NCBI GenBank assembly: GCA_045641325.1
Contig: JAZUGU010000138.1
Location: forward strand, 440 to 64,439
DNA: 64,000 bases
Reading direction: 5' to 3'
DNA from: Candidatus Avispirillum sp.
GTDB taxonomy: Bacteria; Bacillota; Clostridia; Oscillospirales; CAG-272
Positions 12,178 to 56,848 of the stretch are shown here, piece after piece. Each line of letters starts with the position of its first letter. Position 1 is the first letter of the stretch. A model generated the notes under the pieces. It saw nothing but the letters and a program-made list of their open reading frames with translations, had not been told where the DNA came from and searched no databases. The position numbers and the translations under genes are program-made.

Positions 12178-13593
12178 GTGATCGATATAACACCGGAGAA
12201 TTATATGCAGAAGCGCCGTGAACTGTCCGAGGCAAATTCAAATCTTATCGGCGTTGTCATGAAAGAAAAAGAGATCAGACTGAACGGCGTTCTGTCTGAA
12301 CTCAAAAAAGAATATAAGGAAAGCTGCGGAGGAGAGGTGCATTACAGCGTTCCGGTGCTCACGGACCGGAACCTTTGTGAGAGCAGGCTTTACCGCTTCT
12401 GTACTCTTATGCCCAAAGGAGCAGATCTGCACGTTCACGATCTGACCGAGCTTCCGGTACGGGAACTGTGCAGGGTGCTTTCAGATCGCCCGGAAATATA
12501 TATTAATACTGACCGCAAAAGCTATGACCTGAAACGTTTCGTGCCCGGAGAAACGGTACCGGACGGATATATTATGTTCTCTGAGGCTCTTAATGAAGGT
12601 ATAGTATCCGAAGATGAACTTATAGAAAACTGGACTGTACTTGGGGCAGAAAAGAATTCTGTGGGGATCTGGCAATGGTTTGAGGAACTGTTCTGTAAGC
12701 ATGCGGTGCTTTCCGATAACAGAGAATTTGCCGAGGCTTTTTATGAAAAAGCATTCAGATATTATGTGTCACGCGGCATATATCATATAGAAATACATCT
12801 TCTTCTCACCGAAGACCTTGATGCCTGTGCGGAATATATCAAAACCGTGAGGGACGTCTATTATCGGGTTAAGGACGAATTTCCGTTCTTCTCCGTAAAG
12901 ATCATTGGTGCAGGGGTAAAAGCGGATACAGATAGACTTGAATATTCAAAAAAGTGTTTTTTGAACACTCTTTATGCGAAAGAGAATATCAAGGATTGTT
13001 ACGATCCGGAGCATATTTCCGATTTTGTTATCGGCTTTGATCTCGTAAATGAAGAGGATACCAATCTTCCGCTGAAGGATTTTGCTCCGATGCTGTTGAA
13101 GGCGAGAAAACTGTATCCCGATATGAAGCTGTTCATTCACAGCGGAGAGAGTCTTGACGCAAATAATGATAATTTGATAGATGCATATCTGCTCGGCGTG
13201 GCCCGCGTGGGTCACGGACTGAATCTCTACAGATTTCCGGATCTGCTCGAGAGATATGCAAAGTCCGAAATTTGTCTTGAGGTCTGCGTTATAAGTAATC
13301 AGACACTCGGTTATACACGGGATATACGCAATCATCCTGCGGCAGAATATCTGCGGCGAGGTGTCCCTGTGGCACTTTGCTCCGATGATCCTCTGTACCA
13401 GGAAAATGAAACGCTGACGGACGATTTCTTCGCTGCGGCGCTCTGCTGGGATCTCAGCATAGCCGATCTCAAACAGCTTGCCATCAATTCAATAATGTAC
13501 AGCGGACTTGATAATTATGAAAAGCACAAACTGATGACAACATTCAACGAAAAGTGGAATGAATTTGTAGACCTCGCTTTGAATATATTTTGA
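12178..13593 (+). CDS. adenosine/AMP deaminase-family metallohydrolase (ADGF/CECR1-like length)
   Basis: Metal and catalytic motifs in the family order: HVHD, HSGES, GHG, SDDP. 471 aa. GTG start with AAAGGA upstream. Confidence 0.8.
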   Translation: MIDITPENYMQKRRELSEANSNLIGVVMKEKEIRLNGVLSELKKEYKESCGGEVHYSVPVLTDRNLCESRLYRFCTLMPKGADLHVHDLTELPVRELCRVLSDRPEIYINTDRKSYDLKRFVPGETVPDGYIMFSEALNEGIVSEDELIENWTVLGAEKNSVGIWQWFEELFCKHAVLSDNREFAEAFYEKAFRYYVSRGIYHIEIHLLLTEDLDACAEYIKTVRDVYYRVKDEFPFFSVKIIGAGVKADTDRLEYSKKCFLNTLYAKENIKDCYDPEHISDFVIGFDLVNEEDTNLPLKDFAPMLLKARKLYPDMKLFIHSGESLDANNDNLIDAYLLGVARVGHGLNLYRFPDLLERYAKSEICLEVCVISNQTLGYTRDIRNHPAAEYLRRGVPVALCSDDPLYQENETLTDDFFAAALCWDLSIADLKQLAINSIMYSGLDNYEKHKLMTTFNEKWNEFVDLALNIF

Positions 13594-13624
13594 GAAATAT
13601 AAAAAGCCCCTGCAAAGGGGCGCT

Positions 13625-13841
13625 CACTTAGGGAGAGAGGCGCCGCTGATTGTTCGTTCTGAATACAGTCGCCTTACAAAAGTACGGCAGGTGTTCAGAA
13701 CGGACAAAGGAAAGATATAACAAAATGACCGAAACGAAAGTTTCGGTCATTTTTTCATTAGATATTCGGAAAATCTCCCACCATTCGTGACCTAACAGAG
13801 TATTTCTTCTTTCCGGTCAGTGGTGAAAAAATCCCTAAGTG
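13625..13841 (+). repeat. 217-nt structured repeat element, copy 1
   Basis: Same length as 49069..49285 and collinear with it: 6 point differences plus a flipped 4-nt loop in the first 142 nt, then a divergent segment of about 40 nt. Terminal inverted repeats CACTTAGGGA / TCCCTAAGTG. See findings. Confidence 0.85.
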
Positions 13842-13869
13842 AAGCCCCGTAAGGGGGCTTTTTCTTTGA

Positions 13870-14544
13870 TCAGAATGTTACTTCACCATCGTGAGCGATT
13901 ACGGAGGCAGATATAACCCCTTCGATTTTCATTATCTCACGTGTAAGTTCGGCATCATCTGCACCGGCAACTTCAATTATTATATCAAGTTGCTCCTGAG
14001 TCATGGAACGGGATCTTACGGTAGCCCTGCGGCAGAATTCTCCTGCTTTTTTGAGAATTGTTTCCTCAGAGTCGATGTCCGTTGTGCTTACAAGCAGAAG
14101 CTTGGGCGCTTTGCCTACAGGCAGAGCATTGAACAGTATAAGTATCAGCGCCATAATAATGCTGAGTGCAACTGCAATCACGGCAAGACCCGCGCCTGCG
14201 ATTATTCCGCAGCTGATGGACCAGAACAGGAAAATCAGATCAAGAGGATCTTTTATTGCCGTTCTGAAACGAATTATTGAAAGAGCTCCGACCATACCGA
14301 GTGAGATCACCACACTCGACTGAACCGTCAGAATGATTGCGGCTGTTATTACGGATATGGCAATAAGGGATATGCTGAAATTCTTATTGAAGAAAGCTTT
14401 TCTGCACATGATACGGTACATAACGAATATGAAAATACCGATAATGCATGCTACAAGAAGGCAGGATGCAATACTTGCCATGTTGATTTCCGATGAAGAA
14501 TATCCCTCGATGAAAGATTTCTTGAATATGTCCTTGAATGTCAT
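13870..14544 (-). CDS. DUF4956 domain membrane protein
   Basis: Polytopic N-terminal half with IRFRTAIKDPLDLIFLFWSI, as in DUF4956. Overlaps the VTC gene by 4 nt. Confidence 0.8.
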   Translation of the reverse strand: MTFKDIFKKSFIEGYSSSEINMASIASCLLVACIIGIFIFVMYRIMCRKAFFNKNFSISLIAISVITAAIILTVQSSVVISLGMVGALSIIRFRTAIKDPLDLIFLFWSISCGIIAGAGLAVIAVALSIIMALILILFNALPVGKAPKLLLVSTTDIDSEETILKKAGEFCRRATVRSRSMTQEQLDIIIEVAGADDAELTREIMKIEGVISASVIAHDGEVTF

Positions 14545-19935: not shown

Positions 19936-22692
19936 GTGAAAAAAACGACTAAAAGATTGCTTGAAGTTCTGACAGTTGCAGTGCTTCTGTGCGTTTTGCT
20001 CGTAGGCGTGTTCTCGGCATCTGCTGTGTCCGATGATCCCGCCGACAGCTATGTTAAGCAGAACGCGGCAAACGAGGATTCAAGCCTTTCAATGTGGTTT
20101 GACCACTCATTCCGCAAGACGTTCACTTCTGATGTGACGTCCACCGGAAAGGAAACTTACTCTATCTACATGGCGAAGAACGAGATAGAATCGGCCCAGG
20201 TAGTGCTTTATTCCGCAACCGATAGAACCGGAATGAACATCGAAGTTACCGATTTTACCGACGGCAACGGTAATACAGTTCCCGCAGAACTGTATTACGA
20301 AATGTATGTCACTACTTCAAAGCTGAACTCCGCCTATGTGCTGGGAGCAACGGCAAATGACACTATCATCCGCTCCGGCGAGACCCCCGACCCCGTGCTC
20401 CCCTACTCGGCTCTCGGAACAAAAAGCAAACCCGCGACTTTCAAACTCAACGCAGGCAAGTCTCAGGCGTTCCTTATCCGTGCAACGTCCGCTGAGGATA
20501 CTCCTGCCGGCTGGTATTCCGCACAGCTCAACGTGTATGATTCAAACGGCAACCAGGTAAAGACCGCTACCGTTTATCTGCACGTCTGGGATTTTGTTAT
20601 TTCTGATGAGACCGCACTGCAGACTGCGTTCTTTATGGGAAATAATACTTCATACGGCGGCTCATATCAGGCCTTCTACGATTATTTCCTTGAGAACAGA
20701 CTCAACGCTATGGACGTTCCCGGCGGAAAAATCACCTCTTCCAATCCTTATCTGACCAATCCCCGTGTAACGGCAGTCCGTATGTCCACGACAGGTCTTG
20801 GTTCAGTATCCGGTTCTACGTATATGGATGGCACTAACCAGTATGGTCAGTATCTTCCCATGTATTACGATTTGTCTGCTTCCCCCAACTGGGACGAGTT
20901 TAAGGATAAGCTGTATTTCTACACTGTTGATGAGCCTACATCCGAGGAACAGCACGATGCAATAAGACTGTCACAGCCTAATTTCACCGGTGTTACCATC
21001 GACAATGTAAAAAGCGCCAGCGCTTATCTCAGCCGCTTCTGGCCCGATGCAAATACGGTAGTTCCTTATCATGAGGATCATCCTTATCCTTATTACAGAT
21101 ATCCCAACAATCCCGCAACATATTCCTACGGCGAGAGACGTGATGCAACTGAAGAACTGCTGATAACAGGCTCCGTTACCACATGGTGTCCTCAGATTTA
21201 CGCATTCACTCCCAAATATGAGCTTGATGCGGTAAACTACATTGGCGGCGAAGACACTTATATTCGTGAGCTGGGATGCACAATTTCCGGCATATACTGC
21301 GCAGGACCCAAGGGAACAACTGTATTCGGTTCTCCCTATGTTGACTGGACCGAGCAGTTCGGTGAATTCCACGACAGAGTAATGTCCCATCAGATAGTTG
21401 AAAACGCCAAGGGCGGCAATTACAAGCTGTGGGCATACTCCGCAGGCTGGAATAAGGGCTATACTTATTGTAACCACCTTATCGAGAACACCGGACTGCA
21501 GACAAAACTTCTGTTCTGGCAGCTCTTCCAGAACGACGTTACCGGTTATCTCTACTACGGCACGAATAACTGGGATGAATACAAGACAGGTCACGATTCC
21601 ACCACAACCGGTGCAAAATCCACCTGTACATGGTTTGTAAACCGTCACGACTACGGCACCGGATATTCCATCTTCGGTAACGGTACTCTGTTCTACGGTA
21701 AGAACATGGCAAGAGTATCTGCTGTTGATGTTGTCGGTACTCTCCGTATCGAAATTCTCCGCGACGGCGTTGAAGAATATCAGATGCTGAAAATGCTGTC
21801 CGATATGAAGGGCAACAATGCTGCAAAGGACGTTGTATCCGAAGTATCCGCCAACGTTGTAAATTACCTGTCCCTCAATAATTTCTCAACCTCCGCCTGG
21901 GGCAATATGGATGATTACGACATTATGGAAACCGTCAGACGCAACCTTGGTGCCGCTGTTGAAGAGGCATCAGCTGACGTTTGCGAGCATAACTGGGACG
22001 ACGGCGTTGAGACCAAGGCAGCTACATGCAAGGTCATGGGCGAAACCACTTATACATGTACTGAGTGCGGTGCCGTTAAGACCGAGTATATCCCCGCAAG
22101 ACATTCCATTCAGGAGAACTTTACTGAAATCGGCGGAACTCCTGCAACTTGTACTGAAAACGGAAATATCGTTTACAGATGTAATTTCTGCGACTATGAA
22201 AAGTCAGTTGATATTATTGCATTCCATAACGACGAGTTTTCATGGGCCTATGAAATGAAGAGCGACAGCGCTCACGTCATTAAATGCTCCGTGTGCGGTA
22301 CGACTCTCGTTTCCTCTGAAGCTCACGACATGCGTCATGAGAACAGGGAACCTACCTGCACCGAGGCGGGCGTTGAAAGAGATTACTGTCGCGTATGCGA
22401 TTATGAGGCCAATGTTATTGAGGGCGATCCCGCAACCGGACACAACTATGTTGACGGTGTATGTACTGCTTGCGGCGAGCCCGATCCTTCGTACAACCCC
22501 GAACCTCCCGCACCGGAATTTATTCCCGGAGATCTTGACGGCGACAATAAAGTCACCGCAAAGGACATCAACCTCATGAAAAAGATGATGACCGGCGTTG
22601 TGGCTTATGTTGACGCAGCTGACTTGAACGGAGACAACAAGCTGACTGTTGCCGACGTTAACCAGCTGAAGAAAATCGTTACCGGTTCATAA
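19936..22692 (+). CDS. secreted DUF4091 (GH123-like) protein with Cys-rich repeats and a C-terminal type-I dockerin
   Basis: Signal peptide. A DUF4091-like N-terminal two thirds. Three or four repeats of H-x...ATC-x...Y-x-C-x2-CG. Terminal DLDGDNKVTAKD...DLNGDNKLTVAD dockerin duplication. Confidence 0.8.
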   Translation: MKKTTKRLLEVLTVAVLLCVLLVGVFSASAVSDDPADSYVKQNAANEDSSLSMWFDHSFRKTFTSDVTSTGKETYSIYMAKNEIESAQVVLYSATDRTGMNIEVTDFTDGNGNTVPAELYYEMYVTTSKLNSAYVLGATANDTIIRSGETPDPVLPYSALGTKSKPATFKLNAGKSQAFLIRATSAEDTPAGWYSAQLNVYDSNGNQVKTATVYLHVWDFVISDETALQTAFFMGNNTSYGGSYQAFYDYFLENRLNAMDVPGGKITSSNPYLTNPRVTAVRMSTTGLGSVSGSTYMDGTNQYGQYLPMYYDLSASPNWDEFKDKLYFYTVDEPTSEEQHDAIRLSQPNFTGVTIDNVKSASAYLSRFWPDANTVVPYHEDHPYPYYRYPNNPATYSYGERRDATEELLITGSVTTWCPQIYAFTPKYELDAVNYIGGEDTYIRELGCTISGIYCAGPKGTTVFGSPYVDWTEQFGEFHDRVMSHQIVENAKGGNYKLWAYSAGWNKGYTYCNHLIENTGLQTKLLFWQLFQNDVTGYLYYGTNNWDEYKTGHDSTTTGAKSTCTWFVNRHDYGTGYSIFGNGTLFYGKNMARVSAVDVVGTLRIEILRDGVEEYQMLKMLSDMKGNNAAKDVVSEVSANVVNYLSLNNFSTSAWGNMDDYDIMETVRRNLGAAVEEASADVCEHNWDDGVETKAATCKVMGETTYTCTECGAVKTEYIPARHSIQENFTEIGGTPATCTENGNIVYRCNFCDYEKSVDIIAFHNDEFSWAYEMKSDSAHVIKCSVCGTTLVSSEAHDMRHENREPTCTEAGVERDYCRVCDYEANVIEGDPATGHNYVDGVCTACGEPDPSYNPEPPAPEFIPGDLDGDNKVTAKDINLMKKMMTGVVAYVDAADLNGDNKLTVADVNQLKKIVTGS

Positions 22693-22708: not shown

Positions 22709-22745
22709 CAAAATGACCGAAACTTATGTTTCGGTCATTTTTTTA
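22709..22745. terminator. bidirectional intrinsic terminator (ATGACCGAAAC-TTAT-GTTTCGGTCAT flanked by an A-run and a T-run)
   Basis: 11-bp perfect stem with T6 downstream and A4 upstream, between convergent genes. Same stem as the internal hairpin of the 217-nt repeat. Confidence 0.8.
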
Positions 22746-22755
22746 TATGCTGTTT

Positions 22756-39886: not shown

Positions 39887-41272
39887 ATGAAAAACAGAAT
39901 TACGGCATTATTTCTTGCGGCAGTTCTGATTATATGTCCTGCCGTAACGGTCTTTGCAGACGATGCATCCGAAGCGCCCATTGCCACTGTAATGTTTGCA
40001 TCAGATTATCAGTTTGACTACGGTACACTTCCCAAAAGAATACTTTTAGATATTTCGGGAACTGTTTTGAAAGATGGAAAATGCCCCGACAGCTTTGTGC
40101 TGTGCGGCGATGTTACCAACGAAAGCGGATACAGCAATTATAATGCATCGGTCGAAGGTACGGTCAAGTCAATCGTTGAGTCTGAAGCGGTGATCAAAGA
40201 CACTTTCGGAGAGGATACCGATTACCACGTTTTCCAAGGCAATCATGATCCGTTCCTTCCCGATTATATGGATGCTACCGGTGCATACGAGTATGAAGAT
40301 TACATACTTTATGTAATAAACACCGAAGGATATAACCCCTGGGCTCAGGGCGTTACGCAATCGGAAGAAATTGTTCGCAACGCTGCTGAAAAGCTGGATG
40401 AATATCTGACGGAAAAAATTGCTGACTGCGACCACCGTCCCGTATTCGTTGCAACGCACGTTCCGCTCCATTTTTCCGGAAGAACGTCTTCACGTTTCGG
40501 CGTTGGCGACAATATGTATTCAAGGTATTTCTTTGATGTGCTGAACCGTGCAGGTGAGTTTCTCGATATAGTTTTCATTTTCGGGCATAACCATTCAAAG
40601 GGCTTTGATAATTATCTCGGGAACGGAAGTATATTTCTTCCTCGCGGCGGTTTGATACTGATTCCGGATACTACCGGTGTTACCACTCCTTATACCGATA
40701 AATATACGAGGGAAACTCTTAATTTCACGTATATGAATGCGGGATATGTGGGCAATATTGCCAACAGCGAAAGTCCGGAAAACGCTGACCTTACTGCAAC
40801 CGTTGTTGAAATATATGAAGATGATATGGTATTCTCCCGTTACGGTATGTACGGTGTGCACGTACTGTGCGGCGAAGGACACTTCAATACCGTTGAACAG
40901 TATCCCGATCTGAACGTCATACCTACGATGCCCGGACAGTCCTTTGTTCTGGGCGTGTTCCCGACCAAACCCGAGGGAGTGCTTTCCGAAAGAGTGGATA
41001 GTCCTGTTTCGGTATCGAGGCTCCCCGTACACGTACACGATTTCGTTGACGGCGTTTGTACAGGGTGCGGTATCCCGGAGTCGTATTTTGACGAAGCGAT
41101 GCCCGGCGACACCGACGGTGACGGTAAAATTACTGCAAAGGATGTCAATATCCTTAAAAAGGTGCTGACAGGTCAGGTCGAGCAAATGCCTGCCGCCGAC
41201 CTGAACGGTGACGGCAAAATAAGCGTATCCGATGTATCCCTACTTAAGCGAAAATTGTCCGGCTCATTATAA
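39887..41272 (+). CDS. secreted calcineurin-like metallophosphoesterase with C-terminal dockerin
   Basis: Signal peptide. Motifs GDVTN, GNHD, THVPLH and GHNH. Terminal DTDGDGKITAKD...DLNGDGKISVSD. Confidence 0.8.
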   Translation: MKNRITALFLAAVLIICPAVTVFADDASEAPIATVMFASDYQFDYGTLPKRILLDISGTVLKDGKCPDSFVLCGDVTNESGYSNYNASVEGTVKSIVESEAVIKDTFGEDTDYHVFQGNHDPFLPDYMDATGAYEYEDYILYVINTEGYNPWAQGVTQSEEIVRNAAEKLDEYLTEKIADCDHRPVFVATHVPLHFSGRTSSRFGVGDNMYSRYFFDVLNRAGEFLDIVFIFGHNHSKGFDNYLGNGSIFLPRGGLILIPDTTGVTTPYTDKYTRETLNFTYMNAGYVGNIANSESPENADLTATVVEIYEDDMVFSRYGMYGVHVLCGEGHFNTVEQYPDLNVIPTMPGQSFVLGVFPTKPEGVLSERVDSPVSVSRLPVHVHDFVDGVCTGCGIPESYFDEAMPGDTDGDGKITAKDVNILKKVLTGQVEQMPAADLNGDGKISVSDVSLLKRKLSGSL

Positions 41273-41652: not shown

Positions 41653-41791
41653 AATATCACTCTCCGTTTTTATTAACTTCCGGTTCTGCTTTTAGTATTT
41701 CCGTCCGGAGCGTGCATTTAATCACCGTAAGTGAAAAAAGTACATCTGCTCCGTTACCATAATATTCCGAAGAGCTGTAATGTGAGCATCA

Positions 41792-41826
41792 TGAGAAAAG
41801 CGGTTAAGGATTATCCTTAACCGCTT
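41792..41826 (-). terminator. intrinsic terminator after the tagA-like gene
   Basis: The minus strand reads AGCGGTTAAGGA-taa-TCCTTAACCGCT followed by TTTTCT. Confidence 0.75.
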
Positions 41827-41829
41827 TCA

Positions 41830-42597
41830 TTACTTTTTAAACTTGTATATCCAGGTTCCGAAATAGAATTTCGGAAGCTTCATCATTCTGCCTATCCTTT
41901 TCGGCTCGCACAGAAGTCTGTAAAACCACTCAAGGTTCAATTTGATAAACAGCTTGGGGGCACGTTTCAGATTTCCGGAATATACGTCGAGGCTTCCGCC
42001 TAAAGCGAGGAAAATTTTCACGCCGGGCATTTTTTCTCTGTTTTCGTATATCCACTTTTCCTGCAGGGGAGCACCCAGACAAACGAAAAGAATTTCTGCG
42101 CCGGATTCGTTGATCAGACGGAGTGTTTCTTCGTTTTCTTCACCGTCTTTCTTGCAATATCCGTCACGTGTGCCGCAGATATTGATGCATTCGTATTCTT
42201 TTTCGAATACTGCTTTGCATTGATCGGCAACGGAAATTCCGCTTTCTGTTCTTGTTGCGTCTTTACTGCCGAATAGAAAAACGGGAATATTGCGCCTTGC
42301 GGCCATATCAAGTGTTTTTCTTCCGAGTTCAATTCCCGCTACTTTGCATTTCAGAGGTGTACCGAGAATATTGGACGCTTTTACCACGCCTATACCGTCG
42401 GGAATTATGAGCTCTGCCGAATTGATGATATCATAGTTCTTTTCGTCCTCGATACAAAGCTGAACGATCTCCGGATTGGGTGTGTAAACGGCGGTGGTCT
42501 CACCTGCATCATATCTTTCCTCAAGATACTGTGCGGCTTCATCCAGAGTCACATTATCAAACATGACTCCGCGTACATCGATTTTTTCTGTTTTCAT
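41830..42597 (-). CDS. WecB/TagA/CpsF-family glycosyltransferase
   Basis: 255 aa. Pattern PDGIGVV...LGAP.QE.W of the family. Confidence 0.8.
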   Translation of the reverse strand: MKTEKIDVRGVMFDNVTLDEAAQYLEERYDAGETTAVYTPNPEIVQLCIEDEKNYDIINSAELIIPDGIGVVKASNILGTPLKCKVAGIELGRKTLDMAARRNIPVFLFGSKDATRTESGISVADQCKAVFEKEYECINICGTRDGYCKKDGEENEETLRLINESGAEILFVCLGAPLQEKWIYENREKMPGVKIFLALGGSLDVYSGNLKRAPKLFIKLNLEWFYRLLCEPKRIGRMMKLPKFYFGTWIYKFKK

Positions 42598-47104: not shown

Positions 47105-47916
47105 GAAAAACAGGAAAAATCTATACGGCGATAATTTTCGTCATAATGTACCTGCCTCTCCTTGTAATGGTATTCTTTTCCTTCAACGAAGGGAACAGTA
47201 CTGCAAATTTCACGGGATTTTCTCTTAAATGGTATCAGGAACTGATCGAAGACGAAGCGGCAATGGGAGCCTTGAGAAACACTCTTCTTCTGGCGCTTCT
47301 CAATTCCGTTATAGCTACCGTGCTCGGTACTATGGCCGCCGTCGGCATATTCGGCATGAAAAACAAGTGGTTCAAAACGGGCATTCTGTCTGTTACGAAC
47401 ATACCGATGATGAATCCCGAAATCGTAACGGGTGTTTCTCTGATGCTTCTGTTTGCTTTTGTGGGCAGGCTCACTGCATCACCCGAATCTCTCGGATTCG
47501 GCACTATGCTTATAGCACACGTTACGTTCAGCCTTCCGTATGTTGTTTTGAACGTACTTCCCAAACTTCAGCAGACCGACCCGCACCTTGCCGAAGCGGC
47601 GCAGGATCTGGGAAGCACACCGGTCCATGCATTCTTCAAGGTCGTTCTGCCTTCCATTTCCTCCGGAATTCTGTCCGGTGCACTGATGGCGTTCACGCTT
47701 TCAATTGACGATTTCGTTATCAGTCATTACGTAAGCGGCGGCTTTACAACGCTTCCTTTGCTCATATATAACATGACGAAAAAGCGCGTAACTCCCGAAA
47801 TGTACGCTGTCTGTACGTGTATATTCGTATCCGTGCTGATACTTTTGCTCATCATGAATATATCCCAGATCAAACAAACCAAAAACAAAAATATAAAAAA
47901 TGAAAGGGCCAACTAA
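47101..47916 (+). CDS. potC: spermidine/putrescine ABC transporter permease
   Basis: EAA loop AEAAQDLGST. GTG start overlapping the potB stop. Confidence 0.85.
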   Translation: MRKTGKIYTAIIFVIMYLPLLVMVFFSFNEGNSTANFTGFSLKWYQELIEDEAAMGALRNTLLLALLNSVIATVLGTMAAVGIFGMKNKWFKTGILSVTNIPMMNPEIVTGVSLMLLFAFVGRLTASPESLGFGTMLIAHVTFSLPYVVLNVLPKLQQTDPHLAEAAQDLGSTPVHAFFKVVLPSISSGILSGALMAFTLSIDDFVISHYVSGGFTTLPLLIYNMTKKRVTPEMYAVCTCIFVSVLILLLIMNISQIKQTKNKNIKNERAN

Positions 47917-49031
47917 TGAAAAAAACAGTATCTGTAATTCTTGCGGCAGTTATGGTACTCTGTGCATTCTGCCTTGTCTCCTGCGGCGATTCCGCCCCTG
48001 AAATTGACCCCGCAAAGCTTGAGGGAACGTACACCCGTGATCTTGAGGGCACTACTCTTAAGGTATATAACTGGGGCGAGTATATTTCCGACGGTAAAGA
48101 GGGAACTCTTGACGTAAACAAGGCATTTGAGGAAGTGACCGGTATCGACGTGGTTTATTCCAATTACGATGATAACGAATCCATGTACTCCGAACTTGCG
48201 GCAGGTGCAACCTATTACGACATCATTATCCCCTCCGATTATATGGTCGAGAGACTTATCCGTGAGGGAATGCTTCATGAGATAGACGTTAATACCCTTT
48301 CTAACTATAAATACATTGACGATCAGTATAAAGGACTGTATTTTGACCCGGACGAAAAATTCTCCGTGCCTTACAACCTTGGTATGGTAGGACTTATCTA
48401 CAATACTACCATGGTTGAAGAAGCGCCTACAAGCTGGAGCGCAATGTGGGATTCAAAATATTCCGGACAGATTCTTATGTTCAACAACCCCCGCGATGCT
48501 TTTGCGATCGCACAGTTCCGTCTCGGCCAGAGCCTCAACACTCTTGATAAAGCAGAATGGGATGCAGCTGCCGAACTTCTGAAAGAGCAGAAGCCCGTGC
48601 TCCAGTCTTACGTAATGGACGAGGTGTTCAACAAGATGGAGGGCGGCAATGCCGCAATGGCTCCTTACTATGCCGGTGATTTCCTCTCCATGTATGAGAA
48701 TAATCCCGATCTGGCGTTCGTATATCCCGAAGAGGGTGTTAACATTTTCTGCGATTCTGTCTGCATTCCCGCTAACTGTCAGAATTATGAAGCTGCTATG
48801 CTTTATATGAATTTCCTTATGGAGCCTGCTGTTGCGCTTGAAAATGCCGAAAAATTAGGATATCTTTGTCCTAATACATCCGTTATAAACAACGAAGAGT
48901 ATAGTTACAAAGGAAATGAGATCCTTTATCCCTCCGAAGAAAATATGCCCAAGACACAGTGGTTCCACGATATTGATCCCGAAGTTGTCAAGTATTATGA
49001 AGAGCTTTGGGTCGGCGTAAAGAACAGCTGA
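47916..49031 (+). CDS. potD: spermidine/putrescine-binding lipoprotein
   Basis: Lipobox LVSCGD. PotD-like length and pattern. Confidence 0.85.
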   Translation: MKKTVSVILAAVMVLCAFCLVSCGDSAPEIDPAKLEGTYTRDLEGTTLKVYNWGEYISDGKEGTLDVNKAFEEVTGIDVVYSNYDDNESMYSELAAGATYYDIIIPSDYMVERLIREGMLHEIDVNTLSNYKYIDDQYKGLYFDPDEKFSVPYNLGMVGLIYNTTMVEEAPTSWSAMWDSKYSGQILMFNNPRDAFAIAQFRLGQSLNTLDKAEWDAAAELLKEQKPVLQSYVMDEVFNKMEGGNAAMAPYYAGDFLSMYENNPDLAFVYPEEGVNIFCDSVCIPANCQNYEAAMLYMNFLMEPAVALENAEKLGYLCPNTSVINNEEYSYKGNEILYPSEENMPKTQWFHDIDPEVVKYYEELWVGVKNS

Positions 49032-49068
49032 ATTTATTGATGAAAAAGACCGAAGCATTAGGAGCCCT

Positions 49069-49285
49069 CACATAGGGAGAGAGGCGCCGCTGATCGTTCG
49101 TTCTGAATACCGTCGCCGTACAAAGGTACGGCAAGTGTTCAGAACGGACAAAGGAAAGATATAACAAAATGACCGAAACTTTCGTTTCGGTCATTTTTTC
49201 ATTAGATATTCGGAAATCTTCCCACCGTTCTTGGTTTATTAGTCTTTTTTCTCTTTCCGGTCGGCGGTGAAAAAATCCCTATGTG
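49069..49285 (+). repeat. 217-nt structured repeat element, copy 2
   Basis: Collinear with 13625..13841. Terminal inverted repeats CACATAGGGA / TCCCTATGTG. Nested between AAAAAGACCGAAGC (49043..49056) and GCTTCGGTC+T7 (49299..49314). Confidence 0.85.
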
Positions 49286-49295
49286 TGCGCTCCGT

Positions 49296-50582
49296 TCAGC
49301 TTCGGTCTTTTTTTACTTTTATGACTGCATCGAAAAACTCTTTGTACATATAAAGACTGCCCAATCCCAACGTATCTCCGTCGGAGAGCGCGGCACGAAC
49401 TGCAGCTTCAACCGTCTCAAACGGTTCTGCTTCAATTCCGCAATCAAGGTAGACCTGCGTAAGCTTTTCTGCAGGAAGAGCCCTGGGATTATCGGGTGTA
49501 ACGCAGTACACTTTTTTCGCTACCGTACTTATCATTTCCGCCATTTGTGTGTAGGCTTTATCTGCCATAACACCGGTGACCACGTTGATTTTCACGGGAA
49601 ATACCTCTTTTACGGTTCGTACAGCCGCCGAAACGCCCTGAGGATTGTGTCCGCCGTCGAATATGACCGTGGGATCGCTCGAAAGCCTTTCAAACCTGCC
49701 TCTCCAGCTTGCTCGCTTAAGTCCCTCGTGTATGTATCTCTCGTTGATACAGAGCTTCTCACATGCAGTAATAACAAGTGCTGCGTTCTCCGGCTGATAA
49801 GACCCGGCAAGTGCGATCTTAAACGGATCTTTGTAACCGGAAAAACGGAATGATGCGCCGGTAAGTGAAAGCTTTATGTCGGAAAGTCTGGAATAATCCG
49901 TTTTTTCAAAGGGGGCATTTTTGCTTTCAGCCGCGTTGAATACGACCTTTTCGGATGAATTCAACCCGCCGTCGGCGGGATAAGTCGCTTTGCATTTTCC
50001 GATAAGAACGGGACACCCTTCTTTTATGATCCCGGCTTTTTCTGCCGCGATTTTTTCGCAGGTGTCACCGAGAATTGCAGTATGGTCGAGGTCAATTCCG
50101 GTAATTATCGAAAGCAGAGAGCTTTTGATAACGTTCGTTGAATCGAGCCTGCCGCCCATGCCGGCTTCAAGAACAACAACGTCACATTTTAGGTCTTTGA
50201 AATATTCGAACCCAACGGCGGTTATCAGTTCAAATTCCGTAGGCGGATCAGCCATTTTGTCGGCATATGTCTTAACTTTTTCGACCGTTTTTGCCAGATC
50301 GCCGTCTGATATGGGCTCTTTGCCGATTGCTATACGCTCATTAAAGCGATAAACATAAGGCGATGTGAATACTCCGACTTTCATGCCGGCTTCAGTCAGA
50401 ACGGAAGAGAGCATGGAAGAAACCGAGCCCTTGCCGTTAGTCCCTGCAACGTGGATGAATCGGAGTGAGTCCTGCGGATCGCCGAGCATACCGCATAGCT
50501 CTGTTATTCTCGAAAGTCCGGGACGACTGCCCGTCCATGAAACGGTATGTATGTAATTAATTGCTTCTTCGTATGTCATCAT
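49296..50582 (-). CDS. folC: bifunctional folylpolyglutamate synthase / dihydrofolate synthase
   Basis: HVAGTNGKGS P-loop and Mur-ligase fold pattern. Start uncertain (TTG 50603, ATG 50582 or 50579), with weak SD signals. Confidence 0.9.
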   Translation of the reverse strand: MMTYEEAINYIHTVSWTGSRPGLSRITELCGMLGDPQDSLRFIHVAGTNGKGSVSSMLSSVLTEAGMKVGVFTSPYVYRFNERIAIGKEPISDGDLAKTVEKVKTYADKMADPPTEFELITAVGFEYFKDLKCDVVVLEAGMGGRLDSTNVIKSSLLSIITGIDLDHTAILGDTCEKIAAEKAGIIKEGCPVLIGKCKATYPADGGLNSSEKVVFNAAESKNAPFEKTDYSRLSDIKLSLTGASFRFSGYKDPFKIALAGSYQPENAALVITACEKLCINERYIHEGLKRASWRGRFERLSSDPTVIFDGGHNPQGVSAAVRTVKEVFPVKINVVTGVMADKAYTQMAEMISTVAKKVYCVTPDNPRALPAEKLTQVYLDCGIEAEPFETVEAAVRAALSDGDTLGLGSLYMYKEFFDAVIKVKKDRS

Positions 50583-51111
50583 TTTCGTTAAGTACCTTTG
50601 CAATGACTTTATTTTTGAGCAGAACCGTTATTATTCCGAATTCAATTGCCGCAATCACGATATAAAGGGGCAGTCTCGGGTACAGGAGCGGTATTGCCCA
50701 CGAATACATAATGTGAAGACCTGCAGATTTAACAATTATGTTCCCGACAATGTGAGCAGCGAACACGCTGATAAACAGAACTTTGCCGTTCTTTTTGCCG
50801 ATCAGGTGCGGTATGCTTCCCGCAATAAGCCCGACAAGTCCCGCACCGATAGTGATTATTGGATTGATGCCGCCGAGCCCGTACTGAGATATTGCCGTAC
50901 TGATAATGTCGGACGCCAAACCGCATAAAAGCCCCGGAATCGGACCGAAGAAATATCCCGCCATGATCAGCGGCAGGTTTTCAAAGGTTATCCGGATGTA
51001 CGGCGTGACCGTGAGAAACATCTTGCACAGCCAAGCAATGGCTACGGAGAGTGCCGTCAACATAGCACAGAAGCACATGATCTTCACATTTTTGAATGCT
51101 TTTGATTGCAT
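50557..51111 (-). CDS. folT: folate-family ECF transporter S component
   Basis: 184 aa with 5-6 TM segments. ATG 51111 preferred (GGAGG upstream). Preceded by a THF riboswitch and followed by folC. Confidence 0.8.
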   Translation of the reverse strand: MQSKAFKNVKIMCFCAMLTALSVAIAWLCKMFLTVTPYIRITFENLPLIMAGYFFGPIPGLLCGLASDIISTAISQYGLGGINPIITIGAGLVGLIAGSIPHLIGKKNGKVLFISVFAAHIVGNIIVKSAGLHIMYSWAIPLLYPRLPLYIVIAAIEFGIITVLLKNKVIAKVLNENDDIRRSN

Positions 51112-51159: not shown

Positions 51160-51280
51160 GTCCGTTGAAGCGGGATGCAGTATCGGCACCGTATGCCCGC
51201 TTTTCGAAAGAGGACAAATTCGTCCGTGTGACAACTCCCCGTCCACACGGCACTTGCGCACCGAAACTTACTCTTCAGTT
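51160..51280 (-). promoter_or_regulatory. THF (tetrahydrofolate) riboswitch
   Basis: The minus strand reads GAGUAAGUUUCGGUGCGCAAGUGCCGUGUGGACGGGGAGUUGUCACACGGACGAA...GCGGGCAUACGGUGCCGAUACUGCAUCCCGCUUC. This parallels the folT-motif consensus (GAGUAG...GCGUUAAGUG...GGGAUGUCGUCACAC.ACGAAGC...GCAUCCGCUC) as I remember it, and it lies upstream of folT. Confidence 0.8.
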
Positions 51281-56689: not shown

Positions 56690-56704
56690 CGCTTAACGGA
56701 TTTT

Positions 56705-56741
56705 GCCCCGCAGGACGGTTTCGTCCCGCGGGGCATTTTTT
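56705..56741 (+). terminator. intrinsic terminator
   Basis: GCCCCGCaGGACG-gttt-CGTCCcGCGGGGC followed by ATTTTTT. Confidence 0.8.
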
Positions 56742-56848
56742 GATACCTAAATGTGACCTGTAAAGAGTTTTTTTCGAAAAAAAGTAAAAAAGTAATAATT
56801 TGCGTATAATATATATGAATAACAAAATGACGAAAGGCGGCGTAAACG

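Follow-up and report, generated by a model that had tools for sequence, protein, structure and literature searches.

The question raised by this locus is whether a structured repeat lying between convergent genes is an RNA working for its host or a mobile element which happens to fold. The repeat was noticed in a stretch of 64,000 nt from Candidatus Avispirillum sp. (GenBank assembly GCA_045641325.1, contig JAZUGU010000138.1, positions 440 to 64,439 of the forward strand); this whole stretch is called the window below. A first-pass annotation had proposed two readings: either a structured RNA on which selection acts at the RNA level, or a non-autonomous mobile element which targets terminators. 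The second is the better supported of the two: the repeat is probably a non-autonomous small interspersed repeat of 234-235 nt, comparable to MITEs (i.e., miniature transposable elements with inverted repeats) and confined so far to one lineage of uncultured Clostridia. This reading is based on: (i) copies at non-orthologous loci; (ii) empty sites in related genomes; (iii) a decaying copy; (iv) terminal inverted repeats; (v) likely 2-bp duplications; (vi) a sharp insertion niche. As regards the first reading, the observation of compensatory changes is correct, although it is not diagnostic for an RNA function. Bacterial repeats of this kind are already known; the family is new.

The two copies in the window were described as 217 nt long and collinear (13625-13841 and 49069-49285). 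Re-alignment bears this out, together with six differing points in the first 142 nt (13628, 13651, 13667, 13674, 13681 and 13690) and a flipped 4-nt loop, GAAA in copy 1 and TTTC in copy 2, i.e., exact reverse complements. A stretch of about 36 nt follows, which is strongly divergent, and then the conserved ends. Identity between the two copies is 87% over 226 nt. The neighbouring gene calls agree with the statement that both copies are localized between convergent genes.

The full element is longer than this 217-nt core. According to the alignment of the five copies now available, it measures 234 nt (copy 1) and 235 nt (copy 2) and its conserved ends are AGGAGCG...CGCTCCG. A covarying 5-bp tier, GGGGC/GCCCC in copy 1 and GGAGC/GCTCC in copy 2, had been placed just outside the element. 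The pairing is real, the placing is not: this tier is conserved in all five copies (consensus GGAGCGC/GCGCTCC) and is therefore part of the element, not of the flank. The ends form imperfect inverted repeats, AGGAGCGCTCACATAGGGA...TCCCTATGTGnnCGCTCCG, with three tiers of 5-7, 10 and 11 bp separated by internal loops. These terminal inverted repeats (26 bp over the three tiers) are present in the four intact copies. The element is well below ~500 bp and non-coding, its open reading frames being only short and non-conserved.

The search of related genomes for more copies, which had been suggested, was done with an nhmmer profile on regions of ~21 kb around homologues of the flanking genes. Three more copies were found (E-values from 1e-33 to 1e-85), all at non-orthologous loci of GCA_045597805.1, a metagenome-assembled genome (MAG) of a sister species. 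The two regions concerned, L007 and L019, belong to one contig; L019 was reached through the RluA orthologue. The total is thus five copies at five loci in two species, three in + and two in - orientation, and the copies differ by 10-20% from each other. Copy 4 is decayed: its hairpin H1 is partly deleted and its tier 1 is broken. The nhmmer profile detected none in the 18 kb covered of GCA_029010655.1. A species with a PotD identity of 76% had none either, in ~21 kb. Some details of copy 4 may be added. It begins two bases past the stop codon of a WecG-family glycosyltransferase gene, and its right end (L007 3677-3690, - strand) contains a 7-nt duplication (GCGCTCC-TGACTCC-GTTC). No clear host terminator is seen at this copy; in its place, the end of the coding region takes part in a weak AAAGAAC/GTTCTTT pairing.

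Comparison with empty sites had also been suggested. Three of the five sites are comparable and all three are empty in related genomes, each containing a plain terminator hairpin only. PotD, the left neighbour of copy 2, is 86-87% identical in GCA_045597805.1 and GCA_029010655.1. The PotD/FolC spacer of both MAGs is only 50-64 nt long and contains a plain terminator hairpin (AAAAAGCCCCGAAATGGGGCTTTTT or AAAAAGCCCGCGGTGCGGGCTTTTTT), thus the site of copy 2 is empty in both sister species (L003/L008, L004/L007). The orthologous site of copy 3 is empty in the window (56690-56745), and that of copy 4 is empty both in the window (~41790-41830) and in L008, with a simple terminator each time. The homologues closest to the adenosine-deaminase-like neighbour of copy 1 have an identity of 74-76% and belong to other gene neighbourhoods; the comparison of this site is uninformative.

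The insertion sites have one feature in common. Each of the four intact copies (copies 1, 2, 3 and 5) is localized inside the apical loop of an intrinsic terminator of the host. Outside the element the flanks are unrelated between copies save for the terminator arms (GCCCC, GACCGAAGC, GCACCC and GCCCCC stems). These arms, AAAAAGCCCC/GGGGCTTTTT for copy 1 and AAAAAGACCGAAGC/GCTTCGGTCTTTTT for copy 2, are of the A-tract/T-tract type and pair across the whole element in the minimum free energy (MFE) folds. A random intergenic insertion would fall in a loop of 4-7 nt about once in 10 (estimate). The value of four out of four for intact copies therefore means either targeting or very strong survivorship.

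The element is flanked by TT/TT in copies 2 and 3 and by TC/TC in copy 5. Removing the element and one repeat rebuilds ordinary terminator loops of 4-5 nt: A-TT-CA (5 nt) for copy 2, TT-CG for copy 3, i.e., the canonical C(UUCG)G tetraloop, and G-TC-A (4 nt) for copy 5. The flanks of copy 1 are AA/TA, the right TA being an imperfect partner of the left AA, and its rebuilt loop has 5-7 nt. Identical flanking dinucleotides in three of the four intact copies are likely to represent a 2-bp target duplication; the chance of at least three perfect matches in four copies is ~0.3% by our own estimate, which assumes an AT-rich loop composition. When checked for target-site duplications, as had been proposed, copies 2, 3 and 5 show perfect 2-bp repeats, copy 1 an imperfect one and the decayed copy 4 none that is distinct; the sample is small. 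In copy 1 only, each flank can also fold as a local terminator-like hairpin (13601-13621 and 13841-13863), because tier 0 (GGGGC/GCCCC) happens to match the host stem. The left flank, GCCCC-TGCAAA-GGGGC, reads as a - strand terminator and the right flank, GAAGCCCC-GTAAG-GGGGCTTT, as a + strand terminator. Copy 1 may thus keep termination even without the long-range pairing.

The fold of the window copies is far beyond chance. With flanks, the + strand of copy 1 has an MFE of -126.5 kcal/mol (z -12.6 vs. shuffles) and that of copy 2 an MFE of -134.5 kcal/mol (z -13.3), while the - strand of copy 1 reaches -108.5 kcal/mol (z -8.0). The RNAalifold consensus of the four intact copies has 72 pairs in eight helices, i.e., the three tiers (0-2) of the closing helix, both stems of H1 (outer and inner), stem 6, the terminator hairpin and a 3-bp hairpin. 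In these helices 97.2% of the cells are standard pairs. Six pairs have changed on both sides (0-2 when partners are slid by 1-3 columns, 0/500 in column shuffles), these controls being indicative only since they rest on four related sequences. Three of the six belong to the outer H1 stem, each of them in copy 5, and one each to tier 0, tier 1 and stem 6. The change proposed for tier 1, a T-A to A-T swap between CACTTAGGGA/TCCCTAAGTG and CACATAGGGA/TCCCTATGTG, is confirmed. So are the G.U/G-C and U-A/U.G switches of tier 2, where CGCCGCTGA pairs with TCAGTGGTG or TCGGCGGTG; three such switches are found in this tier.

The A-U pair of stem 6 has become C-G (GGCAAGA/TCTTGCC) in copy 3 as well as in copy 5; a one-sided intermediate, C.U, is seen in the decayed copy 4. 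This bears on the three interior hairpins of the first description. H1 and the terminator-like hairpin are retained. The third one, CGGAAA/TTTCCG, is ruled out, because its 3' strand covaries with GGAAAGA of stem 6 and the two pairings compete for this same strand.

Over the helices, 12 positions have G.U pairs and 5 have A.C mismatches (copy 5 contributes two of the latter as alignment slips), a count which is biased since structure prediction allowed G.U. The compensatory changes and the better pairing of the sense strand, as first claimed, are upheld. They indicate that selection maintains the fold, acting on the sense strand in a single-stranded form. This form is most likely the 3'-untranslated region (3'-UTR) or the read-through RNA of the upstream gene; the alternative is a single-stranded DNA intermediate of transposition or replication. 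Both copies found in tandem-gene contexts (2/2) are in sense to the upstream gene, which together with the G.U excess on the sense strand makes us lean towards RNA. The same changes are seen in known mobile repeats, bcr1 and REPINs, thus covariation does not separate the RNA reading from the mobile one.

Conservation is very uneven along the element. The pairwise difference is 1.8% for the terminator stem, 11% for all paired positions, 17% for the other unpaired positions, 41% for the variable segment and 75% for the terminator loop. Evolution of the variable segment is about three times as fast as that of the remainder of the element.

The internal hairpin has an 11-bp stem, a 4-nt loop, a T-run of 5-6 in sense and of 4 in antisense direction, and AAAA upstream. 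It has the features of an intrinsic terminator: the - strand was flagged by the terminator scan and the T-run of the + strand was read from the sequence. It looks like a bidirectional terminator, stronger in the sense direction. Its stem is 100% identical in the first four aligned elements and in a solo hairpin (see below), and the single change, A to G in copy 5, gives a G.U pair on the sense strand. On the contrary, the loop differs in every instance, the solo one included (GAAA, TTTC, CTGT, TTGC, TTAC and TTAT). The reverse complements GAAA and TTTC point to inversion of the loop at the DNA level. A terminator needs a structure only, and a near-invariant stem with a variable loop suggests a further cause: a sequence-specific partner (transposase or host protein), gene conversion, or an independent unit similar to repetitive extragenic palindromic (REP) sequences.

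The solo hairpin, whose stem is that of the internal terminator, is directly 3' of the stop codon of a gene for a 918-aa dockerin-type protein. It probably serves as terminator between this gene and a convergent 343-aa gene. Only one such hairpin was found in ~120 kb. The similarity of its locus to the element beyond the hairpin is weak and T-rich (nhmmer), and the locus was treated as a hairpin only. Three readings are possible for it: a REP-like unit which stands free, the origin of the terminator of the element, or a product of gene conversion.

These features can be joined in the following model. A transposase encoded elsewhere would make a cut, staggered by 2 bp, at the apex of a terminator hairpin or cruciform, and insert the element there. 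The inserted sequence would fold back through its three-tier closing helix, the long H1 and the stem around its own terminator and variable segment. The closing helix would rejoin the host terminator, whose two halves would prolong it, and the element would also bring its own replacement terminator. Insertion would then be near-harmless to both neighbour genes, terminator loops being one of the few places where 234 additional nt cost almost nothing; this would explain why copies survive there. Selection for pairing at the RNA level would come from the stability of the 3' end of the upstream mRNA and from the resealed host terminator in read-through transcripts.

Several points weigh against a mobile element. 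Only five copies are known, and the exact patterns are absent from the collections scanned (see below), so that the family is rare and mobility depends on a small number of events. In ~170 kb of unique sequence of the lineage, neither a transposase nor an autonomous parent nor an isolated end was found; the search for isolated ends allowed up to 6 mismatches and recovered only the five known copies. The boundaries of the element were fixed after seeing the alignment, with only four intact copies, and the 2-bp repeat is imperfect in copy 1 and indistinct in copy 4. The empty sites come from other species with differing terminator sequences and do not form an exact before-and-after pair. A sense transcript which stops at the internal terminator cannot form the closing helix. 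Finally, the uneven conservation (1.8%, 11% and 41%) and the covariation of the internal hairpins point to a functional constraint beyond that of a purely selfish, recently spread MITE.

These points have to be compared with the difficulties of the other explanations. The repeat could be a functional structured RNA, i.e., a cis-acting 3'-UTR or terminator module or a small RNA derived from a 3'-UTR, selected by the host as a three-way junction and spread by rare duplication. Protection of mRNA 3' ends, insulation of convergent transcription and protein binding are its possible roles. Compensatory changes in every major helix, including H1, which is no terminal repeat, are in line with such an RNA, as are the preference of the sense strand for G.U over A.C, the advantage of 18 kcal/mol of the + strand over the - strand, the sense orientation of the tandem-context copies, and junctions and stems far better conserved than the variable segment. 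It is nevertheless unlikely, since every comparable orthologous site is empty in the sister genomes, one copy is decaying, and 2-bp flanking repeats and loop placement are signatures of transposition. Moreover no promoter is conserved, the flanks vary from copy to copy and there is no Rfam match; sense transcription should end at the internal terminator, ahead of the 3' strands which complete the closing helix, and compensatory changes also occur in known mobile repeats (PMC3184786, PMC3116915).

Mobility itself might be of another type than that of a MITE moved by a DDE transposase. A folded single-stranded DNA might be the moving form, handled by a recombinase of the HUH/Y1 type or by one which recognises hairpins (similar to REPIN-RAYT, or to IS110/IS1111 with their targeting of palindromes). 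In that case the protein would recognise the near-invariant ATGACCGAAAC/GTTTCGGTCAT hairpin, and the hairpin standing alone at 22714 would be a minimal unit of REP type. Pairing maintained over the whole element with G.T tolerated on one strand only, a terminator stem near-invariant (1.8%) by comparison with its loop (75% pairwise difference), the presence of the same stem alone at 22714-22741 and a target which is a hairpin tip are consistent with this idea. In addition, REPINs show compensatory changes in a single-stranded DNA hairpin (PMC3116915) and several families of insertion sequences (IS) target REP palindromes (PMC1525189). Yet three + and two - copies in one syntenic stretch argue against movement which depends strictly on the lagging-strand template, the Pfam labels of the nearby genes show none of Y1 or IS110 type next to any copy, and only one solo hairpin was found in ~120 kb. 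Flanking repeats of 2 bp and long terminal inverted repeats are not known as features of the IS200/IS605, RAYT or IS110 systems. This route is quite unlikely. It is far more improbable still that no discrete element exists, i.e., that the copies result from local terminator duplication or gene conversion, from the leftover ends of a larger deleted element or from an artefact of MAG assembly. All sequences do come from MAGs, palindromic terminators recombine readily, and the GAAA/TTTC flip is a DNA-level rearrangement in a hairpin. But the five copies have the same exact ends, unique flanks and intact neighbour genes in two independent assemblies, no partial ends were found elsewhere, and a divergence of 10-20% means that the copies are not collapsed or duplicated reads.

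The MITE-like repeat is therefore preferred. A bolder form of it, which we consider rather doubtful, is a structure-directed transposition system of a sort not described before: a recombinase would recognise the tip of any intrinsic terminator, in cruciform or single-stranded form, by shape and not by sequence. The mobile DNA would itself need to fold into a closed three-way junction, a self-sealing cargo by which termination is restored. The ATGACCGAAAC/GTTTCGGTCAT hairpin could then be a protein recognition module which also exists as a free-standing REP-like unit.

The first-pass annotation recognised no named RNA family, and the scan of Rfam (release 15) agrees: no family reaches its gathering threshold for the element, whether in the whole window, in a permissive scan of the locus or at the sister loci. 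The best sub-threshold matches at the locus (Yfr10, 29 bits vs. a gathering score of 43, and STnc240) cover the terminator hairpin only. Exact patterns of 20-22 bases were used for scanning the collections. CAGAACGGACAAAGGAAAGA has two chance matches only among 185,579 species genomes, both in coding sequence; AGGGAGAGAGGCGCCGCTGA and the hairpin pattern have none in the JGI metagenomes, and three patterns have none in viral contigs. A blastn search of the element against plasmids and phages gave no match. No description of the element was found in the literature, nor of a Ruminococcaceae MITE with terminators. Replication-strand bias is not informative, the GC skew being weak and the copies being in both orientations.

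Other candidates were rejected. A class C group II intron is excluded by size (234 nt vs. >600 nt) and by the only match to a group II model being one of 12 bits (E = 3); insertion inside the loop and not after the stem also speaks against it. An IS200/IS605-derived PATE is excluded by the long terminal inverted repeats and the 2-bp flanking repeats, by two internal hairpins which are unrelated to each other and by the lack of a left-flank motif shared among copies. A guide function of the variable segment towards the flanks (as in bridge RNA, omega RNA or the exon-binding sites of introns) was dropped, the local alignments having p ~0.15-0.2. The same holds for a small peptide: a 24-codon frame with a CTG start is destroyed by a 1-nt indel in copy 5 and by changes in copy 3. 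This frame (13646-13720 and 49090-49164) starts 5 nt past a Shine-Dalgarno-like GGGAGAGAGG, and three of its five differences between copies 1 and 2 are synonymous.

Coordinates of the element, its parts, its host terminators and the neighbouring features. Positions refer to the window unless L007 or L019 is given; parts of copy 2 have the coordinates of copy 1 + 35444.
Feature	Position	Strand	Remarks
Copy 1, full element	13616-13849	+	AGGGGCGC...AAGCCCCG; 234 nt; element alone folds at -108.9 kcal/mol
Copy 1, host terminator 5' arm and loop remnant	13601-13615	+	arm AAAAAGCCCC 13601-13610; remnant TGCAA
Copy 1, putative left target repeat	13614-13615	+	AA
Copy 1, closing helix, 5' strand	13617-13651	+	tier 0 GGGGC 13617-13621; tier 1 CACTTAGGGA 13625-13634; purine loop GAGAGG 13635-13640; tier 2 CGCCGCTGATT 13641-13651 (folds, alignment)
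Copy 1, hairpin H1	13652-13706	+	outer stem GTTCGTTCTGAATAC/GTGTTCAGAACGGAC; inner stem GCCTTAC/GTACGGC; loop AAAA
Copy 1, stem 6, 5' strand	13709-13715	+	GGAAAGA; pairs with TCTTTCC 13808-13814
Copy 1, internal terminator	13721-13755	+	A-tract; stem ATGACCGAAAC 13725-13735; loop GAAA 13736-13739; stem GTTTCGGTCAT 13740-13750; T-run to 13755
Copy 1, variable segment	13772-13807	+	pyrimidine-rich, largely unpaired
Copy 1, stem 6, 3' strand	13808-13814	+	TCTTTCC (folds)
Copy 1, closing helix, 3' strand	13815-13848	+	tier 2 GGTCAGTGGTG 13815-13825; A6 13826-13831; tier 1 TCCCTAAGTG 13832-13841; tier 0 GCCCC 13844-13848 (folds, alignment)
Copy 1, loop remnant and host terminator 3' arm	13850-13863	+	remnant TAAG; arm GGGGCTTTTT 13854-13863
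Copy 1, left neighbour	12178-13593	+	adenosine-deaminase-like gene
Copy 1, right neighbour	13870-14544	-	gene for 224-aa membrane protein
Copy 2, full element	49060-49294	+	AGGAGCCC...TGCGCTCCG; 235 nt
Copy 2, host terminator 5' arm and loop remnant	49043-49059	+	arm AAAAAGACCGAAGC 49043-49056; remnant A-TT
Copy 2, left target repeat	49058-49059	+	TT
Copy 2, right target repeat, loop remnant and host terminator 3' arm	49295-49312	+	TT 49295-49296; remnant CA; arm GCTTCGGTCTTTTT 49299-49312
Copy 2, left neighbour	47916-49031	+	PotD-like binding-protein gene
Copy 2, right neighbour	49296-50603	-	FolC gene
Copy 3	L007 18589-18822	+	intact; with flanks -121 kcal/mol, z -10.5; directly 3' of 634-aa gene
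Copy 4	L007 ~3894-3677	-	decayed; with flanks -82 kcal/mol, z -4.3
Copy 5	L019 3145-2911	-	intact; between convergent epimerase and ATP-grasp genes
Terminator stems, five copies	13725-13750; 49169-49194; L007 18699-18724; L007 3783-3808; L019 3009-3034		
Solo hairpin	22714-22741	+	ATGACCGAAAC-TTAT-GTTTCGGTCAT; A/T tracts 22710-22746; 0.01 matches expected by chance
Tetrahydrofolate (THF) riboswitch	51166-51277; L007 13030-13136	-	Rfam RF01831; 68 and 74 bits
Dockerin-like repeats	19936-22692; 41024-41266; L007 2896-3129		GDLDGDNKVTAKD..., DLNGDNKLTVAD...

Some observations concern the genes around the copies. At copy 2 the FolC frame crosses the 3' arm of the interrupted host terminator (...KKDRS; 49296-49312), and its stop codon (TCA on the + strand, 49296-49298) is in the loop remnant, one base from the right end of the element. 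In both sister MAGs, FolC stops 4-7 residues before that of the window. The THF riboswitch is the only Rfam hit in the window and in L007. It is upstream of the gene of an ECF-type S component adjoining FolC and is kept in the sister MAG, an ordinary and known arrangement. Dockerin-like repeats end two secreted proteins at their C-terminus, and the loci of the sister MAG have glycoside-hydrolase Pfam labels (GH67 N-terminal domain, alpha-L-fucosidase). This suggests a cellulosome-type fibre degrader among the uncultured Clostridia, similar to Ruminococcaceae judging from the names of the sources of homologues.

Compensatory changes at the RNA level, a preference for the space between convergent genes and modules resembling terminators have been described for MITE-like repeats (PMC3049150, PMC3184786, PMC3116915). 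The pneumococcal BOX, RUP and SPRITE repeats are structured and enriched between convergent genes, SPRITE being terminator-like (Croucher et al. 2011, PMC3049150). Like the element, these repeats of Streptococcus pneumoniae are short, non-coding, found in Firmicutes near the 3' ends of genes and endowed with extensive predicted RNA structure. SPRITE also shares with it a module similar to a rho-independent terminator, the lack of a known cognate IS and the restriction to one species group. However, SPRITE is ~105 nt long and AT-rich, its ends are AAAA/TTTT only and it has no established target duplication, whereas the element has 234 nt, 26 bp of three-tier terminal inverted repeats, a branched fold, a site in terminator loops and 2-bp repeats. 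The likeness to SPRITE, BOX and RUP is one of features; no sequence relationship is known.

The bcr1 repeat of the Bacillus cereus group is MITE-like, ~155 nt long and transcribed, and compensatory changes keep its RNA structure (PMC3184786). Its distribution between related strains is non-conserved, it has flanking direct repeats and some copies have lost stability, as for the element. It differs by direct repeats of 5 bp, another fold, no built-in terminator and no reported preference for terminator loops. REPINs are also extragenic palindromes with long, covarying hairpins, a conserved core beside a middle free to vary, and long persistence in a lineage (PMC3116915, PMC3333891). They consist of two inverted REPs of 20-40 nt (~100 nt in all); the architecture of the element is not such a doublet, and one solo hairpin exists. 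REPINs also number in the hundreds, lack a target duplication and go together with RAYT, a Y1 transposase gene present in single copy; none of these features was seen for the element in the loci covered.

Class C group II introns home next to terminator stem-loops. IS1397/ISKpn1, IS621 and ISPpu9/10 insert in palindromic REP repeats (PMC1525189). These introns and IS resemble the element in choosing a hairpin or palindrome over a long specific sequence, and low-harm, extragenic, terminator-like sites. They differ in being autonomous, 1-2.5 kb long and in encoding a transposase or reverse transcriptase; their targets are a host REP family or a site downstream of a terminator, while that of the element is the apical loop of ordinary, sequence-diverse intrinsic terminators. 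Correia/NEMIS repeats (Neisseria) and ERIC repeats (enterobacteria) have 100-160 nt and terminal inverted repeats, with a 2-bp (TA) duplication for Correia. They are co-transcribed with neighbour genes into hairpin RNAs which affect mRNA processing or termination. Compared with the element they belong to other phyla, have no sequence similarity to it, are not known to target terminator loops and form simple hairpins, not a three-way junction. Both are listed among bacterial repeats (PMC3184786).

A consequence for pipelines of non-coding RNA discovery is that covariation and G.U asymmetry alone do not tell an RNA gene from a mobile repeat; caution is needed. For genome annotation, the element explains two oversized convergent intergenic regions, and the 3' ends of the upstream genes can be flagged as ending in predicted, element-borne terminators. 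Such an element might be used as a self-insulating insertion module. It is a clean example of a bacterial repeat with terminator loops as survival niche, for which the empty sites can be reconstructed. If the tips of terminators were indeed targeted by an enzyme, this would point to a structure-specific transposase in uncultured Clostridia of the gut or rumen.

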